Translations under genes and position numbers: made by a program
Virus record (IMG/VR): IMGVR_UViG_2541047866_000002
Reading direction: 5' to 3' (one strand)
Length of the DNA: 11,159 bases
Source: a virus
Lineage: Duplodnaviria > Heunggongvirae > Uroviricota > Caudoviricetes
The notes under the pieces: generated by a model
What the model was told of the DNA's origin: nothing
Seen by the model: only the letters and a program-made list of their open reading frames with translations
Database searches by the model: none
Shown here: positions 1 to 6,702 of the stretch, one piece after another
Position numbering within the stretch: the stretch's first letter is position 1
How the letters are laid out: the number at the start of each line of letters is the position of its first letter

Positions 1-94
1 AGCAGAAAAAGCTTATTATGCTTCCATCGGAAACGATGATCTGGCAGCCTGAGTTCACAGATAAAACACTCTCCAGGAAACCCGGGGCGGTTCA
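1..94 (+). mobile_element. 3' end of an IS629-like (IS3 family) insertion sequence: transposase OrfB C-terminal codons plus right terminal inverted repeat
   Basis: Bases 69-94 (ctctccaggaaacccggggcggttca) are the reverse complement of the element start at 11065-11090 (tgaaccgccccgggaatcctggagac) with 3 mismatches over 26 bp, and end in the IS3-family terminal CA. The termini match what I remember of IS629/IS1203-type elements. Confidence 0.8.
2..52 (+). CDS. IS3-family transposase OrfB, C-terminal fragment (5' partial, gene continues upstream of the window)
   Basis: Frame 2 reads AEKAYYASIGNDDLAA then TGA at 50-52, open to the window edge, immediately followed by the terminal inverted repeat. 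Confidence 0.6.
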   Translation, partial: AEKAYYASIGNDDLAA

Positions 95-328
95 GAGTAG
101 CTTACGAAGCTTACCATCAGCGGCAACCATGTTCATATGAACACAGTTGAATTTGCTAATCTGCTTCATGAGTTTTGTTTGCTGCGTTGACCAGCTCATT
201 CCGAGGTTTTCAACGATTGGCTTCATCGCAACATATGCAACTCCGGCAGCCATGGCGGTGATAATTTGCTGACCGTTGAATGGCACGTAAGAGGTGTTCA
301 CTGCTTCTAAAATTGCTATACTATTCAT
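95..328 (-). pseudogene. ant: Antirepressor Ant-like gene (AntA/BRO-N type N-terminal domain), 3'-truncated by the IS insertion
   Basis: ATG at 328-326 opens [43 protein letters not shown]..., about 78 native codons. The reading frame runs straight into the IS terminus and its stop codon (94-92, TGA) is supplied by the IS end TGAACC. It lies downstream of an Arc-like gene as in P22 immI. The GTG at 394 of the ORF track is rejected as start. Confidence 0.6.
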
Positions 329-400
329 GTTGGTTTTTCTCCACGGATTTACCGACAACCGAAGCCCTGACTGTTCCAGCAGTTGGGGCTTCACTGTTTT
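329..400 (+). ncRNA. Candidate sar-like antisense RNA covering the ant ribosome-binding region
   Basis: Extended -10 element TGcTATACT at 314-322 on the plus strand (inside the ant 5' end, antisense). A stem-loop at 361-392 (gaagccc...gggcttc, 7-bp stem with an internal ctg/cag sub-stem) is followed by a T-rich tract at 393-410. Predicted transcript is about 70 nt, antisense to the ant leader. P22 encodes a small sar RNA in the equivalent position. Confidence 0.3.
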
Positions 401-560
401 GATTTCTTTGCCGCATCAAGCATCACTTCTGAAAACGTGCGCTTGCCACTGAATACTCTTTCTCTTCTCAATTTTTCGTTCGTGCCAAATGATTCGCCAT
501 GAACAAAATTTGGTCTTAAAATGGTAATCGCAATCTCTTTGACTACTGCATCCAAGCGAA

Positions 561-713
561 TCACACCGTTACCCCCTCTCTCTTCAGGCTGTCTATCAGG
601 CGCTTGATAACCTCTGAGTTAAACGACCTGCACTCTTCCTTTGCCCTGCTACCGATAGCATCCTTTAACGACTGCGGCATCCTTACCAAAATCTTACTTA
701 TTTCTTTCTCCAT
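561..713 (-). CDS. arc: Arc-like ribbon-helix-helix repressor (50 aa)
   Basis: ATG at 713-711 preceded by GGAGG with a 5-nt spacer. The product MEKEISKILVRMPQSLKDAIGSRAKEECRSFNSEVIKRLIDSLKREGVTV resembles P22 Arc (...ENGRSVNSEIYQRVMESFKKEG...). It is divergent from an Mnt-like gene. The TTG at 749 is rejected as start. Confidence 0.8.
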   Translation of the reverse strand: MEKEISKILVRMPQSLKDAIGSRAKEECRSFNSEVIKRLIDSLKREGVTV

Positions 714-827
714 GTTACCCTCCACGCAAACAACTCTTTTCGAATACAAAAGATAGCAAAGTGAGTATATCTAGTCAAAATTTTTTTGCATACACTTTGC
801 TATCAAATTGAATACCAAAGGTGTTAT
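714..827. promoter_or_regulatory. Divergent arc / mnt promoter-operator region with a perfect 12-bp inverted repeat
   Basis: gatagcaaagtg at 752-763 and its exact reverse complement cactttgctatc at 793-804, 29 bp apart. On the minus strand -35 TTGACT (plus 773-778), a 17-bp spacer and -10 TATCTT (plus 750-755) lie upstream of arc, with one repeat copy in the spacer and overlapping the -10. On the plus strand a TTGCAT -35-like hexamer (786-791) sits just 5' of the other copy; the plus-strand -10 is unclear. Confidence 0.55.
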
Positions 828-1076
828 ATGGCAAAGGGTGTGTCAATTTCTCCAACTACGGTAAGAATCCCTGAATCTTTACGCGAGGCTCTTGCTGTCA
901 GAGCATCAAAAAATGGTCGCTCTGTTAACTCCGAGATCGTCATGATTTTGCAAGCCGCGATTGATGAAGATAGGTCGCCAAAGTCAGTTGAGTCATTTGC
1001 TCAGCAAGAAGCTGATAAATTCAAAGAGGCGCTACTTGAGACGCTAAAGACCATGTATGCTAAGGATGAAAAATAA
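828..1076 (+). CDS. mnt: Mnt-like ribbon-helix-helix repressor (82 aa)
   Basis: ATG at 828. The product MAKGVSISPTTVRIPESLREALAVRASKNGRSVNSEIVMILQAA...KFKEALLETLKTMYAKDEK resembles P22 Mnt along its length (GRSMNSELLQIVQDAL ... KKMVFDTLKDLYKK). It is divergent from arc as in immI. The stop TAA at 1074-1076 overlaps the next ATG (TAATG). Confidence 0.8.
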   Translation: MAKGVSISPTTVRIPESLREALAVRASKNGRSVNSEIVMILQAAIDEDRSPKSVESFAQQEADKFKEALLETLKTMYAKDEK

Positions 1077-1612
1077 TGCTGCACACAATTCATTTCTTAT
1101 GCCCTGTTAACACTGCCACTGTTGGGCAACTTCAGAACCACTGTCTCACCGCATTATCTCAAGGCGCAACTGAATTAAATATCCATATATCAAGTCAGGG
1201 AGGGGAAACTGCTGCTGGCTTTACTGCGTATAACTTTCTTAAGTCACTCCCTGTTACCGTTAGAACTCACAACATAAGCAATGTTGAATCCATAGCTAAT
1301 ATCGTTTTCCTGGCTGGCTCAGAACGTTTCGCAAACCCATTATCAAGATTCCTGTTACATCCTCTATTATGGTGCTTTGCCTCCCCAGCCGCCGACCATG
1401 CCAGATTGAGAGAGTACGGGAAATGCCTCGATAACGATCTTGATCGCTTCGTTGAGACGTTCAATATCGACATCGGAACCCATATTAGGTGGGCATCCCT
1501 GATAGCAGACTCGACCATTTTGGATGCTAACAAGGCTCTTGAGCATGGCATAATTAATTCCATAAAAACTGCAAGGCTGGCATCCAATCAGGCAAACTGG
1601 TGGGTTGTTTGA
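1076..1612 (+). CDS. ClpP-fold (S14-like) serine peptidase, short stand-alone form (178 aa)
   Basis: Start overlaps the mnt stop (TAATG). ISSQGGETAAGFTAYNFL aligns by eye to ClpP INSPGGVITAGMSIYDTM; NVESIANIVFLAGSERFANPLSRFLLHPL to [32 protein letters not shown]; the C-terminal ILDANKALEHGIINSI to FLSAPEAVEYGLVDSI. Candidate Ser (ESIA), His (LLHP) and Asp (IADSTILD) residues are present. Family assignment is from memory, not a search. Confidence 0.6.
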   Translation: MLHTIHFLCPVNTATVGQLQNHCLTALSQGATELNIHISSQGGETAAGFTAYNFLKSLPVTVRTHNISNVESIANIVFLAGSERFANPLSRFLLHPLLWCFASPAADHARLREYGKCLDNDLDRFVETFNIDIGTHIRWASLIADSTILDANKALEHGIINSIKTARLASNQANWWVV

Positions 1613-1630
1613 TGGGTAAATCATGATTAC

Positions 1631-1662
1631 TCCTTATAAAAAACCCACCTGACGGTGGGTTT
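1631..1662. terminator. Stem-loop terminator between the convergent ClpP-like and YafO-like genes
   Basis: aaacccacc-tgac-ggtgggttt at 1641-1662 (9-bp perfect stem, 4-nt loop). On the minus strand it is followed by TTTTTATAAGGAG (plus 1631-1640), a canonical intrinsic terminator for the minus-strand cassette. On the plus strand the downstream T-tract is weak. Confidence 0.55.
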
Positions 1663-2110
1663 AGTCAAACATAGTGTTTCTAAAGTCTCTCGCATACCCT
1701 GCTAACACTCTCATTCTATTATGATTGTTAGCAGACATGTGAGCTACAGGATGAAAAAGAGCAATCAATGAATACCTGTTCTCATCAAAAAGATTTTGTG
1801 CATAAACGAGAGCGGTATTGGATGTTTTATGCCACTGCAACTTTTGCGGTGTGCTGATATCTGTGCCATTTTTTATTGGCTCAAATTTATTTTCACCAAT
1901 TGCTAAATGAAGGTGCATAAGGCCTGCATCTTCAATATCAGGAGGTCGATGATAAGAGGTGTCTCTGCCAAAATAGCTGGGCAACGTTCCCGTAGACTTG
2001 TAGATGATAAAATCATCTACAAGTGTTTGTTTTAAATCAGGAAACTCAACAAAAACCGGGGAGAAAAAATAGTCAAAACTATCCTGATTATATTCCACGG
2101 TTACTTGCAT
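1661..2110 (-). CDS. YafO-family toxin-like protein (149 aa)
   Basis: ATG at 2110-2108 with GAGGT 5 nt upstream, located inside the 3' end of the preceding gene. The product aligns by eye with E. coli YafO as I remember it: DFIIYKSTGTLPSYFGRD / DFISYKRDGVLPDTFGRD; HLHLAIGENKF / HIHLANENNPF; ALVYAQNLFDE...LIALFHPVAH / HLVYCQGAFDE...LIAILKPEPH; and a C-terminal N..M......A..FR pattern. Confidence 0.7.
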   Translation of the reverse strand: MQVTVEYNQDSFDYFFSPVFVEFPDLKQTLVDDFIIYKSTGTLPSYFGRDTSYHRPPDIEDAGLMHLHLAIGENKFEPIKNGTDISTPQKLQWHKTSNTALVYAQNLFDENRYSLIALFHPVAHMSANNHNRMRVLAGYARDFRNTMFD

Positions 2111-2118
2111 GTTTTACC

Positions 2119-2685
2119 TCAGTGGAAGTTACCAGAGTGAAACACACGAGTCCCGTGCTCAGCAAGCGCACGCAAACCAGCCATATCTACGGAACTATCA
2201 AAAACAACCGGAACACATGAGCGTTGTTTAATAAGACTATTCAGGTTGGTTACGGCAGATCTGGCATCAGCAACAACGATATAGATATCTCTTGCGATCT
2301 CTTTAAAATCAGCAGAAGCTTCTTTGAATACCGATTTCATTGCCCCTTCAAGTCCTCTCAATTGATGCTCTATCAATCGAGACTTTTCTGGTTCAATGAT
2401 AGACAACACATTGTCTACATTCTCATCGGTAGCGTTTGCAAGAACACGATAAGCGTATTTCAGCATTCGAGACAATTCTTTAATCGAAGACACCGCCTCA
2501 TGAAGCTCATCATTAGCCCGTTCACTGCTGAATGAGGATTGATGGTAAGCGTGCTGAACGTTATCAGTAACAACCACCTCACAACTGAACGCAGAAGCTT
2601 GCTGTAATAGCAAACCTATTGCGACTCCAGCTTTGGCAGCGTTCAAGCTAAACATTTCATCAATCCCATTAGTCTCATTGCTCAT
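2119..2685 (-). CDS. Hypothetical protein (188 aa), upstream partner of the YafO-like gene (antitoxin position)
   Basis: ATG at 2685-2683 preceded by AAGGAGG with a 5-nt spacer. Its stop TGA at 2121-2119 lies 8 nt before the YafO-like start. No motif I recognise (no obvious RHH/HTH). The longer ORF start at 2715 is rejected because it lacks an RBS. Confidence 0.6.
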   Translation of the reverse strand: MSNETNGIDEMFSLNAAKAGVAIGLLLQQASAFSCEVVVTDNVQHAYHQSSFSSERANDELHEAVSSIKELSRMLKYAYRVLANATDENVDNVLSIIEPEKSRLIEHQLRGLEGAMKSVFKEASADFKEIARDIYIVVADARSAVTNLNSLIKQRSCVPVVFDSSVDMAGLRALAEHGTRVFHSGNFH

Positions 2686-2860
2686 ACAAACCTCCTTCTT
2701 ATCGGAGATTATCAATAGCTATGCATCCATTGAATACACGCTATGCGCAATAAGTTTACGTCACGTGATATCATTATGCAACCACCGTTCTATCACCGAC
2801 TAACTTTACTCCCACTCCTATACATCATCTGGTATCCTGCGCAAAACTAAGGAGGTTGGT
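2686..2860. promoter_or_regulatory. Divergent intergenic region between the 188-aa gene and the membrane-protein gene, with candidate promoter and palindrome
   Basis: On the minus strand TTGCAT (plus 2776-2781), a 17-nt spacer and TAAACT form a plausible sigma70-like promoter for the cassette. The spacer contains the 8-bp palindrome TCACGTGA (2761-2768). Promoter for the plus-strand gene not confidently placed. Confidence 0.35.
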
Positions 2861-3211
2861 GTGAATGCTCAGTCTGTCATCATGGTTTTCCTTGGGCTGA
2901 TTGTCGCAAAACTATATCCAGACTGGTGGAAAGGGGCATTAGCTACTGTCGCCATCTATTTGCTTTTATCCATCGTTAAGCGATCACTCGCTGAGACCGT
3001 AAATCAAGCAAAACGTTTCTCATTTAAGAGTTTAATAAACTATGTTACTGGGCTTATTTTTTGCCTTTCAATTCTGATCGCTTCGGCTTTTTTGCCCGTA
3101 TCAATAGCTAATTTTTTTGGCGCACCATATGAGGTAGGTTATCTATTCTCTGTTTCCTGTCTTGCCATTGCTCTTCTTTACCTGTGGACGAGATCAAAGA
3201 ATAAAAATTAG
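2861..3211 (+). CDS. Small integral membrane protein with 4 predicted TM helices (116 aa), in the position and orientation of P22 sieA
   Basis: GTG at 2861 with GGAGG at 2851-2855 (5-nt spacer). Four hydrophobic stretches (VIMVFLGLIVAKLY, ALATVAIYLLLSIV, LIFCLSILIASAFLPVSIANFFG, YLFSVSCLAIALLYLW). Convergent with gene 16 and AT-rich. Confidence 0.6.
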   Translation: MNAQSVIMVFLGLIVAKLYPDWWKGALATVAIYLLLSIVKRSLAETVNQAKRFSFKSLINYVTGLIFCLSILIASAFLPVSIANFFGAPYEVGYLFSVSCLAIALLYLWTRSKNKN

Positions 3212-3223
3212 CCATCCGTGGCT
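3196..3223 (-). terminator. Short hairpin plus U-tract at the 3' end of the late operon (after gene 16)
   Basis: agcca-tccg-tggct at 3210-3223 (5-bp stem), followed on the minus strand by AATTTTTATTCTTT. The stem is short, so strength is uncertain. Confidence 0.35.
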
Positions 3224-3228
3224 GCCAG

Positions 3229-5244
3229 TTATTGAGCTTCTTTTTGTGATGCCTGTGCGACTCTGGTGAGCGATTGTGTGACCGTACTGATCGCTCTGTC
3301 ATATGCTGTGCTACCTTTTGGCGTATTTGCCAGACGTAACAAGGCATTTCGTATAACAGGGCTTTCGTATGCCTTCGCAGCTCCTCCTACGACACCAGCA
3401 GCAGGAACAACAAACGCAGCCGTTTTTAGCATCCCCGCTAATACTGCTGCGTTTATGATGCCACCACCAACTAACAATCCATAAAGCTGCTGACCATTTA
3501 AGTTTTGAACGTTCGCTTTTGCCGCGTGTCTTGTATCGTTGAGGTATTTAATAACGCCGTCCAGTTCCTTTCCATGTACGCCTTTAAAGAAAGTTGCTGA
3601 TTGCTTCCTGTTCCGGTGTAACGCATTAATAAACTTTTCAACACTAATATTTCCAGACGGATCAGTCGCCTTATCTACAGCATTCTGAACTATGGCTGCT
3701 CGTGCGTTTTGCCTACCATTGTCATCCAGAAGCCTGTAAAGCTGAGAACGTTCTGATGGGTTTTGGCTAAAAACGAGTTTTGTTACATCCTCAGGTGTAG
3801 CCTTGCCGCTGGCTATTGCCTTTTGAACGCGCGTTCTTCCCATCATGTCATTGAATCTAGCCCATGAGCGATCAACCCTAGACATATTGGCAGCTTCTTC
3901 TGAGCCTAGTTTTTGGGATACTGCTTTTTTCATATCCGCTGTATATGCCTTGTAGACAATATCGCTGGCTTTCTGGAGCGTGTCTTTATCAACAGTCTCG
4001 TTTGAATTCATGAACCGCTTTCGAAGGTCAGTTCTGTTTTCTCTCGCCAGACGCAGGTCATTGGGTCCGCTGGTGATATCGTCTTTAAATTGCTGCAAGA
4101 CTTTTACCGCGGCTCTATCCTGAGATTTGCCCGGGCGGCTTAACACGGCAATCTGATTGTCGATAGCTTTTACCGTGTTTGAGAGATCGACAGGGGTATC
4201 CCCCATAGCGTCAATTATGCGGTTATATCGCTTTCCTGCTGCCTCAATGAATTTTTGTTGCCCTTTAGTCGCAGATTCATAAAGCTGTTTATCAGAAATG
4301 CCACCCAGACCATCGCTAAATGTTCTGACTAAATTTTCTCGTGCTTGTTGTTGATTCAGCCGATTCTTACCGGTTCCAAAAAAAGGAACTCTTTCGCCTA
4401 ATGTCTGAGCCTGACTCTGCATAAAGGTTTTATCTTTCAGCGTGTCACTGGTCATTAACGGCAGGTTTCTTTCCGACGCAAAATCGACAGCAGCCTTTGC
4501 TTCCGGTGACATCTCACCGCGAACAGCCCTGGAAACCGCACTAACTGTATTTTCCAGCCCCTTGCCAACACCACCAATGCCAGCAGAAATTACCGTTTGT
4601 GCAGGATCAATATCTTCTCCGCCAGCAAGGCTGGTGCCACCCTGTAGTGCTAAATCTGTAGCAGCTGATTTCCCTATGGCACCAAGCACCGTTCCAGCCC
4701 TGCCCGCTGGTGTGAACGCTAACGCATTAGCAAGAAACGAAGTCAGGTCTTGCGGTGATAAACCTGGCTTGTTCAGGGCATAATCACCGGATGGCAGGGA
4801 AACGATAGTGTTACCCTTCTCATCCTGCCTTAATTTCGCCCCCATACTCTGAAGAATCTTTTCCTGAGACGCGTCGGAGCCGAAAAGTTGAGACCATCCA
4901 GCCTTCAGGGCATCCATGCTTAGTGAGTTCAACTCAGGGGCAGCCCCAACATTTTGCAGTCTCTCCATTTCTGGTGTCATTCGGCTTTCACCGGTAACGG
5001 CATCGCGCATTGCAGCACCTAAAACAGCCCCTTGCTCAGCAGAGCGATCTAGTCCTTCCTTCTGCTGAGTGGCAAGCTGTGCATATCCTGATGCAAGTGA
5101 GTTGTCTGCTGGCGATTGCTGAACACCTTGTTGTGTTGGCGCTGACTGACCAGCAAAATACTCATCAATGGCGGACCCAATATCTTCCGTGCTCGTACCA
5201 TCAGGAAAGGTAAATGTCTTACCATTTGCAGTTACTTTCATCAT
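3229..5244 (-). CDS. Ejection (injection) protein, P22 gene 16-like
   Basis: 671-codon ORF, third of three consecutive genes after a gp7-like gene as in P22 (7-20-16). Starts [16 protein letters not shown]... at tandem ATGs (5244 and 5241) that overlap the gene 20 stop (ATGATGA); the true start may be 5241. Gly/Ala-rich. Confidence 0.75.
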
Positions 5245-6692
5245 TCCACCGTAAATTGAATGCCTGATTTTGACGTGTAGCTACCTCCTGCTGATTGCTG
5301 AGTAGCTGGCTGTTGCCTTGATGATTTCTTCCCGCCATTACCAACATTAACGTTATATTGCTGGTTGTAATTGTCGGTATATTGCTGAATGTCGCGCATT
5401 GATTGTTGCAGCGCTTCAGGACTTGAGAAATCAGGCTTTGGCATACCCTGAAAATACCTATTGGCCTCTGCTTCGGTGTTGATGCCAGATGCCCCCATAT
5501 CTCGGGCTGCTGCAATCCCCTGATTTTGCATTTTGCCCATGATTCGCTGTGCAGCGTTGTATAGCCTCCTCTCCTCAACACCAGATGCCCTGCTACGAAT
5601 ATCTGCACCAAGAGCAAAAGAACCTGAAGAACCTGTAATACCTGTCATGAAGCCAAGATCGTCAATTGATGCGCCAGAAATTGCATCAAGATCTTTCTTC
5701 ATTTCGTAATTCTGTGCATTAGCTGCCGATGTAGCCGGAGCAGCAATAGAACTGGCGGGGACGCGAATCATATTGCCCTCGTTGTCTATTCCTTCGTAGA
5801 ACGCATTAGCACCAGCGCCGTGAAGCTTCCTACCAACCGTTACCGTTCTGCCATCTGCCAGTTGCACAACATTCTCCCCGCCAGCATCAGGACGACCTCG
5901 AACACGAAGATATGTCTTTTGTTGCTCTGGAGACAGGCTGTTGAAATATTGATATTCTTTAACAGATGCAGGAACAGCACCTCCAGCAGTGCGCAGGGAG
6001 TTTTCACGGCTAACAGCAATGCTTTGCGCCTTTAAACCTTCCCCAGCTTTATTGCTGCGAATCGTCTCTGCCAACTTGCCACGCTCAATATCCCGACCTT
6101 CCATTTGATCTTTGATATCGAAATACTTCTCATGACCGAGAGAAAATAGTGCCAGATTACCTGCGAAGTGCTGGAAGCCCTGCGGGTCATTAACCTGCAT
6201 TTCCGCAATAGTTTCTGGAGGGATACCTAAACGACGCATCTCCTTTTCGTTATCCATCATGAACCTGCCAAATGCACCCGGACCAAGCGACGAAGCGACC
6301 TGAGCCTTAAGCGCCAGATTGCCAAAATCATCCCGCTGGGCGTCATCGACATACCCCATGCCTTTACGGACTTCCTCAAACTCTTCGGGGAATGCTGTAA
6401 TAAGATTACGCATCTGCTCCCTGTCGCCGGACGCATAAGCATCCGCATAACCTTTCTGGAATGCCGCTTTACGCTCCTGCTTTTGCTGCTGCTTATAAAT
6501 ATCAGCAACTCCAGCCAGACCACGAAGACCTGTCAGAGCAACGTTATTTGCACCTGATCGAGCCAGTTCATTGTTTTCGCGGATCAGACCAAGCGTTGCG
6601 TTAATGTCGCTTGCCTTTGGCGCATTCTCATTTTGCGTACCGATGCCAGCCAGAAACCCACCAGAATTAATACCCTGTTGCCACGTAGCCAT
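5241..6692 (-). CDS. Ejection (injection) protein, P22 gene 20-like
   Basis: 483 aa (P22 gp20 is 471 aa as I recall). ATG at 6692 preceded by AAGGGG. Synteny between the gene 7- and gene 16-like ORFs. Confidence 0.75.
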
Positions 6693-6702
6693 TGATTACC
6701 CC

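Follow-up and report, generated by a model that had tools for sequence, protein, structure and literature searches.

In P22 and P22-like phages, the region between gene 16 and gene 9 has been described as a rapidly fluxing 'ant moron', with ten types among sixteen genomes, and late transcription reads through it (PMC2629481). P22 itself carries sieA-orf59a-mnt-arc-ant in this slot, flanked by the gene of the ejection protein gp16 and that of the tailspike. SieA targets gp16 and gp20 in their C-terminal parts (PMC10883804). Among proteases, PpClpP1 is a ClpP truncated at its N terminus; its triad is Ser-His-Pro, its pore is wide and it does not bind ClpX. With canonical ClpP2 it forms mixed tetradecamers that are more active (PMC12900304). 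Here, we analyzed an 11,159-nucleotide stretch of DNA from a virus of the Caudoviricetes (IMG/VR record IMGVR_UViG_2541047866_000002), referred to below as the window, and in particular its interval 1076-3211, which carries a ClpP-like gene, a YafO-family toxin gene with an upstream partner gene, and the gene of a small membrane protein.

We consider it likely that this interval is the variable half of a P22-like ant moron, a mosaic of three independently recombining cassettes whose cargo appears to serve the lysogen. In this model, the first cassette is mnt with the clpP1-like gene, forming a single coupled operon within the immunity region immI. The second is a self-contained bicistron of partner and YafO-family toxin on the strand of the late genes, with its own upstream region and terminator. 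The third is the gene of a membrane protein with four predicted transmembrane segments, placed behind the leader that drives sieA in P22 and tied to one gp16 allele. All three cassettes would be expressed from the prophage and would serve the lysogen rather than virion production.

Cassette exchange in the ant moron slot

Judged from its sequence, the window belongs to an Escherichia coli prophage of the P22-like (Lederbergvirus) type. It is 100% identical to prophages of E. coli ATCC 11775, S88 and many K1 strains of the extraintestinal pathogenic (ExPEC) and avian pathogenic (APEC) lineages. The ATCC 11775 copy adjoins tRNA-Arg and intS, and its gene order is coat-gp4-gp10-gp26-gp14-gp7-gp20-gp16, the interval 1076-3211, and mnt-arc-orf57-ant-tailspike. 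The late genes of the window are all on the minus strand, the last of the late operon being the gene-16 (ejection protein) homologue (3229-5244, minus strand; PF26808 Phage_P22_gp16 in homologous contexts). The interval is thus located between the gp16 homologue and the tailspike gene, which follows ant in intact ATCC 11775.

To the sequence-only reading, the interval was an AT-rich accessory island of horizontally acquired morons, to be compared with other P22-like prophages. That comparison, for which cassette combinations were tabulated over IMG/VR and other contigs, bore out the exchange: slot content differs among syntenic relatives, its parts are present or absent as units, and the same cassettes recur in differing combinations in P22-like prophages and also in the unrelated lambdoid phages HK639 and PhiR12_1. 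The same partner-toxin cassette (98-100% identical) occurs in four settings: with the ClpP-like gene and the membrane gene (loci L046, L047, L048 and L050); with the ClpP-like gene and another gp16, without the membrane gene (L045); without the ClpP-like gene, beside an mnt 36-67% identical (L049, L051 and L052); and without the ClpP-like gene, with the membrane gene (L053). The membrane gene and this gp16 allele also occur without the other two cassettes (L039-L042). The slot is occupied by sieA and orf59a in P22, by gp14 and gp15/a lipoprotein in epsilon34, and by orf129 and a DUF4065 pair in Emek.

In phiv205-1 and several others, window positions 93-1662 are shared at ~99% and divergence begins exactly at an intrinsic terminator (1641-1662), which marks a module boundary in that homology with phiv205-1 and others stops at 1662. 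Toward gene 16, the membrane gene is preceded by a conserved sieA-type leader (2828-2863, plus strand) with an TGGTATCCT extended -10-like element, AAGGAGG and a GTG start, ~97% identical in Emek, JEP4, phiv205-1, epsilon34 and others. Alignment demonstrated that this 36-nt leader, TCTGGTATCCTGCGCAAAACTAAGGAGGTTGGTGTG, is common to P22 sieA, epsilon34 gp14, Emek orf129 and others, and that the open reading frames (ORFs) behind it are mutually unrelated and all start with GTG. The leader looks like a fixed expression signal and recombination junction. The region is a known hypervariable locus and ordinary as a compositional island; its novelty lies in the uncharacterised cargo, not in its kind.

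In a related viral contig (L054, 6052-7228), a 68-aa C-terminal remnant of the ClpP-like protein and a HicB-like/HicA-like pair stand beside the partner-toxin cassette. Together with the DUF4065 pair of Emek, the HicAB-like pair suggests that the slot accumulates modules of toxin-antitoxin type.

Base composition and transcription units

The AT-rich character of the interval had been drawn from hand counts on two 60-nt samples, which we reproduced (38.3% G+C at 1681-1740 and 51.7% at 9181-9240). Over the full lengths, G+C is 41.8% in 1076-3211 against 49.2% in the late genes (3229-11159), and a maximum-likelihood change-point test gave a log-likelihood ratio of 22-24, indicating that the drop in G+C is not due to chance. 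Codon usage is likewise not uniform. The pooled genes of the interval have a G+C at synonymous third codon positions (GC3s) of 0.366, against 0.454 expected from the synonymous usage of the late genes (z = -4.5), a shift driven by the YafO-like gene (z -3.6), the 188-aa partner gene (z -2.4) and the membrane gene (z -2.6). The late genes' own GC3s values scatter from z -3.4 (gp16) to z +3.7 (gp14).

The interval as delimited is, nevertheless, no compositional unit, and the part of the sequence-only reading that set it apart from immI failed on this point. The G+C of immI (93-1075) is 42.9%, as low as that of the interval, and the lowest-GC window of 2136 nt begins at 679. The single best change point lies at 4437, within the gene-16 homologue, and the best two-point model places steps at 3210 and 4440, separating segments of 42.3, 45.7 and 49.9% G+C. 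The low-GC tract takes in immI and the 3' part of gene 16. The gene-16 homologue is itself mosaic, with 45.2% G+C in its C-terminal two thirds (3229-4437) against 51.2% in its N-terminal third (4438-5244). Low G+C probably marks a foreign, often-exchanged origin of the whole moron, immI included.

The interval had also been described as three independent transcription units on alternating strands, each with its own ribosome-binding site or terminator. The strands do alternate (+, -, +), and each unit has a Shine-Dalgarno sequence. The units are not all independent, since the ClpP-like gene overlaps the mnt stop codon and belongs to the mnt operon of immI, and there is only one convincing terminator, at 1641-1662, shared by convergent units. 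This intrinsic terminator is a GC-rich hairpin of 9 bp, AAACCCACC-N4-GGTGGGTTT (dG -14.9 kcal/mol, z -3.2, with 0 of 200 shuffles as good), strong on the minus strand (U6 tail) and weaker on the plus strand. It separates the convergent ClpP-like and YafO-like genes and ends the partner-toxin operon. A hairpin at 3210-3223, between the membrane gene and gene 16, was considered as a terminator of the late operon and rejected, being no better than shuffled sequence. Taken together, what survives of the earlier description is a lower-GC accessory region with alternating strands and moron-like cargo; its boundaries, the independence of the ClpP-like gene and any convincing terminator beyond the one at 1641-1662 do not.

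The cargo genes and their predicted products

The minus-strand unit consists of two genes. The downstream gene (1661-2110, minus strand) encodes a 149-aa predicted toxin of the YafO family (BECR-fold mRNA interferases), matching Pfam YafO_toxin (PF13957) at E = 3.4e-22; its score of 78.9 bits clears the gathering score of 25. The NCBIfam YafO model, with an equivalog cut-off of 153, gives it 79 bits, so that it does not count as an orthologue of the E. coli protein. Directly upstream lies the gene of the 188-aa all-alpha partner (2119-2685, minus strand; phrog_8416, unknown function), the presumed antitoxin. The partner gene begins with an ATG at 2685 behind a GGAGG Shine-Dalgarno sequence, and the toxin gene begins after an 8-nt gap, its Shine-Dalgarno sequence being overlapped by the partner stop codon. 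About 100 nt upstream of the cassette are conserved and contain a TTGC..-17-TA.ACT pattern; the inferred candidate promoter, TTGCAT-17-TAAACT (2753-2781, minus strand), shows this pattern conserved in three diverged cassette copies, and the palindrome TCACGTGA (2761-2768) falls within its spacer. A consensus scan did not call this candidate.

The partner matched no Pfam or NCBIfam family at E<0.1 and no PADLOC family, and its own family is tiny, with 24 clusters among 1.84 billion representatives in an exhaustive profile search. The literature on YafO with phage, P22 or defence yielded no description of it. In 9 of 9 independent contexts, the partner gene is followed directly by a gene with the PF13957 domain, at a spacing of -4 to +11 nt; these comprise the window, Salmonella P22-like prophages, HK639, an Arc/Ant-linked contig and three different tail-gene clusters, and the pairing holds even where the partner match reaches only E 1e-4 to 1e-3. 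Partner/toxin identities in homologous pairs are 65/89, 54/83, 37/59 and 34/54%, demonstrating that the partner diverges faster. The ratio of nonsynonymous to synonymous substitution rates (dN/dS) is ~0.03 for the toxin and 0.11-0.14 for the partner, consistent with purifying selection on both. The AlphaFold model of the partner (pLDDT 70, a per-residue confidence score) is an all-alpha bundle, with an invariant C-terminal tail, FHSGNFH, modelled with low confidence. Of 5426 complete E. coli genomes, 55 (~1%) carry the cassette, in each case on the chromosome and at 99% identity or more; K1 ExPEC and APEC lineages are among the carriers.

These features fit a candidate module for type II-like toxin-antitoxin action or abortive infection, whose antitoxin family would be new. 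The 188-aa helical protein would bind and neutralise the YafO-like mRNA-cleaving toxin, and losing or titrating this faster-evolving partner would free the toxin.

The plus-strand gene at the other side of the terminator (1076-1612, plus strand) encodes a predicted N-terminally truncated ClpP1-like serine protease (Pfam CLP_protease, 2e-11; 44.4 bits against a Pfam threshold of 20.2). The TAA of mnt at 1074-1076 overlaps its ATG at 1076-1078 (TAATG, 1074-1078), an AAGGA Shine-Dalgarno sequence lies 9 nt upstream of the start, and no promoter or terminator signals of its own were found; the gene is predicted to be translationally coupled to mnt. It accompanies mnt in phiv205-1 and PhiR12_1, and the TAATG overlap together with this joint travel identifies it as the distal gene of the immI mnt operon. 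The mnt-type (Arc-family) maintenance repressor gene itself (828-1076, plus strand; Pfam Arc 1e-10) encodes a product 36-38% identical to the Mnt proteins of P22 and epsilon34. The rest of immI comprises the arc repressor gene (561-713, minus strand; Pfam Arc 1e-11, PGAP annotation), the sar antisense RNA (329-395, plus strand; a full-length match to Rfam RF00262, 83.9 bits, E 2e-17) and an N-terminal fragment of ant (93-328, minus strand, ATG at 328; Pfam P22_AR_N 6e-18) cut by an insertion sequence (IS). The Arc domains of arc and mnt, the P22_AR_N domain of ant and the sar RNA therefore confirm immI. Between arc and ant, a 57-aa ORF (391-564, minus strand; phrog_17642, E 1e-43, unknown function) shares bases with the arc stop codon; the corresponding place in P22 holds no gene.

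The closest solved relative of the ClpP-like protein is PpClpP1 (9UXT; E 1.6e-35, end-to-end). Among 24 homologues, residues S72 and H95 never vary, and their counterparts in 9UXT are S73 and H96. Where PpClpP1 has Pro151, these homologues have Ser/Ala, and the adjacent D144 varies among them, so the canonical triad Asp was not found in this alignment. The match begins at position 37 of the Pfam model, and the N-terminal axial loops that dock ClpX/ClpA are absent in both the Pfam and 9UXT alignments. The label of phage head maturation protease, given to this gene in the phiv205-1 record and by phrog_94, was rejected: the protein scores 49 bits with NF045542 against a cut-off of 120, and the gene lies in immI, not in a head cluster. 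The protein also falls under the curated ClpP cut-off.

Elsewhere, the ClpP-like gene stands by itself as a moron in many enterobacterial prophages, among them those of Pantoea, Erwinia, Proteus and Rahnella. Homologues ~40% identical lie at a conserved chromosomal locus in Massilia, Telluria and related genomes (L028-L034, L036 and L038), whose neighbours, by translated ORFs alone and without a family-library scan, look hydroxyisourate-hydrolase-like and porin-like. This Massilia-type locus is apparently not a prophage, and the ClpP-like family is therefore not exclusively phage-borne. A general link between ClpP-like proteins and Arc/Mnt was rejected on these grounds, given the solitary gene and varied prophage contexts in other genera and the chromosomal locus in Massilia; the coupling to mnt is thus lineage-specific. 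In PhiR12_1 (L018, 2606-4618), a 54-kb siphovirus, a complete immI-like block, ant-arc-mnt-clp, lies between the lambda-like tail genes L and K. By its gene content, the immI module is one that moves as a unit between unrelated phages.

We infer that the ClpP1-like subunit is made with Mnt in lysogens and modulates host Clp proteolysis; by analogy with PpClpP1 and ClpP2, it would probably act through co-assembly with host ClpP. The full proposal, in which a subunit co-translated with Mnt joins host ClpP in mixed tetradecamers and retunes the ClpXP/ClpAP proteolysis of the lysogen, is a speculative analogy that we hold to be rather doubtful. If it were true, leaky antirepressor might be removed, or the turnover of antitoxin or phage proteins changed, and the subunit would represent lysogenic conversion aimed at host proteostasis.

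The third cargo gene (2861-3211, plus strand) occupies the sieA position, convergent with gene 16, and encodes a 116-aa protein with four hydrophobic segments by hydropathy. It has a GTG start with AGGAGG 5 nt upstream, is separated from the partner gene by a 175-nt divergent region, and ends 17 nt from the gene 16 stop codon. The protein received no Pfam, PHROG or NCBIfam family assignment, and a tblastn search of 50,697 phage records returned no match. Its family is narrow and enterobacterial, lies beside a gp16 gene in 5 of 5 contexts looked up, and is under purifying selection (dN/dS 0.12-0.39). In all loci that carry the membrane gene (11 of 11), the C-terminal part of gp16 is at least 73% identical; in loci without it, this part, where detected, is only ~30% identical. 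The tie to one gp16 allele, together with the gp16 and gp20 C-termini as targets of SieA, makes a role in exclusion suggestive. By analogy, the membrane protein may be a positional counterpart of SieA that blocks DNA entry by related phages.

Alternative explanations and comparison with described systems

Both ends of the window carry IS sequence. Positions 1-92 are the end of an IS3-family (IS629/IS1203-like) element with the inverted repeat ...CTCCAGGAAACCCGGGGCGGTTCA, which truncates ant; this segment is a multicopy match in ~4000 E. coli genomes, where it is annotated as IS3-family transposase. A second IS3-family (IS629/IS1203-like) terminus lies at the other end, at ~11066-11159. The two share a 27-nt inverted match, and no matching target duplication was found at the two IS3-family ends. 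With IS3-family termini at both ends, the 11-kb window is therefore an IS-bracketed prophage remnant. In it, ant is cut after ~79 codons (full-length Ant in ATCC 11775 has 300 aa) and the coat gene is also truncated; given this truncation by the bracketing elements, the late promoter is probably absent from the remnant. In E. coli SCU-116 (L044, NZ_CP051719.1, 1339-8274), two IS3-family copies flank only ant'-arc-mnt-clp-yafO-partner-membrane-16'; the remaining prophage is lost, and the accessory region persists where the structural genes are gone.

Several observations weigh against the reading of the interval as a mosaic of lysogen-serving cassettes. The expression context of an IS-bounded remnant may differ from that of an intact phage. 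The GC3s of the ClpP-like gene (z -1.0) is indistinct from that of the late genes. A sigma-70 consensus scan found 6 sites against 7.1 expected in shuffled sequence, with no enrichment, and the promoter calls therefore draw on conservation alone. For the toxin-antitoxin interpretation, a fold search with the partner model returned only generic helical bundles, neither a DNA-binding nor an antitoxin domain could be recognised in the partner, and the single-sequence model of the toxin reached only pLDDT 37. PADLOC, run on the four proteins, gave no credible defence family, its sole match being ZorA at E 0.004 over a coiled segment. Membership of the 116-aa protein in SieA was rejected, with no blastp match to P22 SieA and the FxRYPxEAxxFNK motif absent. 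Simple physical adjacency explains the linkage of the membrane gene and gp16 equally well.

The low G+C could simply be the general composition of the P22-like regulatory and accessory region, compounded by amino-acid effects such as those of a hydrophobic membrane protein, so that the 'island' would be an arbitrary slice with no recent foreign acquisition; the equal AT-richness of immI, the change point inside gene 16, the undistinguished GC3s of the ClpP-like gene and the wide scatter among the late genes all agree with this. The GC3s test, however, controls for amino-acid content and still separates the pooled genes from the late genes, and cassettes present or absent among near-identical prophages point to real exchange, which leaves this account the less probable one, though one to be taken seriously. 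Far less credible is the view that the cargo has become inert and is decaying along with a dead prophage remnant between IS elements. The IS3-family ends around the window, the truncation of ant and the coat gene, and the retention in SCU-116 of nothing but ant' to 16' between two IS copies would suit it. Yet all four ORFs are intact, and dN/dS against Salmonella, Yersinia and E. coli homologues is 0.03-0.39 for the toxin, partner and membrane genes. Moreover, 55 complete E. coli genomes have the partner-toxin cassette at 99% identity or higher, 49 cover at least 80% of a 3.4-kb query of immI plus the interval (window 1-3400), and the interval is retained in SCU-116 where the flanking phage genes are lost. 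We regard such decay as highly improbable.

A further alternative concerns the partner-toxin pair itself, which might not be a toxin-antitoxin system. One possibility is that the helical protein serves as sensor, adaptor, co-effector or chaperone, for instance by sensing infection and switching on the RNase. Another is that the phage itself profits from the pair, for instance through late shut-off of host mRNA, given that late read-through transcription would cross the cassette in its sense direction. In favor of such readings, the partner exceeds the toxin in size, carries neither an antitoxin nor a DNA-binding domain and falls into no antitoxin family; the cassette shares the strand of the late genes in this window and lies within late tail operons of HK639 and two further loci (L012 and L014), and P22 late transcripts read through the ant moron (PMC2629481). 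Set against this are the partner-then-toxin order, the short or overlapping gaps and the strict co-occurrence, which, like the faster divergence of the partner and its conserved, low-confidence C-terminal tail, are the usual signature of type II antitoxins, and the cassette has its own conserved upstream region and terminator. We therefore consider this alternative unlikely, and favor the reading of the pair as a toxin-antitoxin or abortive-infection module.

If the cassette reading is correct, a single prophage slot gathers cargo of benefit to the lysogen through cassette exchange at conserved junctions, namely the terminator and, at the opposite flank, the shared sieA-type leader. The partner would represent a conserved phage-borne family for YafO-type RNase toxins, in the place of YafN, and thereby a candidate new antitoxin or abortive-infection module. 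A ClpP1-like subunit would be wired to the prophage maintenance repressor, and the linkage of the membrane protein with a gp16 allele offers a lead toward an exclusion mechanism independent of SieA.

The closest described system is the ant moron of P22 and P22-like phages (Villafane et al. 2008, PMC2629481). The locus resembles it in its position after gene 16, the immI core (mnt, arc, sar and ant), the same conserved leader before the gene beside gene 16, hypervariable content and lower G+C. It differs in having no sieA and no orf59a (the published region lists orf59a/hkcC), and in carrying a ClpP1-like gene in the mnt operon, an opposite-strand bicistron of partner and YafO-like toxin, and an unrelated membrane protein. 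With P22 SieA types A-C (Leavitt et al. 2024, PMC10883804), the membrane gene shares genomic position, orientation and leader, a small predicted multi-pass product, and a neighbouring gene from the family of the likely target (gp16); the proteins have no sequence similarity, the window protein being 116 aa against 164-200 aa and lacking FxRYPxEAxxFNK.

The ClpP-like protein compares with PpClpP1 of Pseudomonas plecoglossicida (PDB 9UXT; PMC12900304) in its full-length homology, its N-terminal truncation, its lack of ClpX-docking loops, and the retention of Ser and His with a third triad position that is not Asp; unlike PpClpP1, it is phage-encoded and coupled to a repressor, and its third position is Ser/Ala rather than Pro. 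The partner-toxin pair shares with E. coli K-12 YafN-YafO the PF13957 domain of the toxin, including the FGRD...HxHL motif region, and the bicistronic layout with the partner upstream. It departs from that pair in a 188-aa all-alpha partner from a tiny unannotated family, against the ~97-aa Phd/YefM-type YafN, in a toxin below the NCBIfam equivalog cut-off, and in being phage-borne rather than part of the dinB operon. A phage counterpart is gp17-gp18 of HK639, among the tail-region morons of lambdoid phages, with a homologous partner (~37-38%) and toxin (59%) and the same 8-nt spacing; there, the pair is inserted in the tail region of a siphovirus, flanked by the tape-measure gene and minor-tail genes, and not beside immI.

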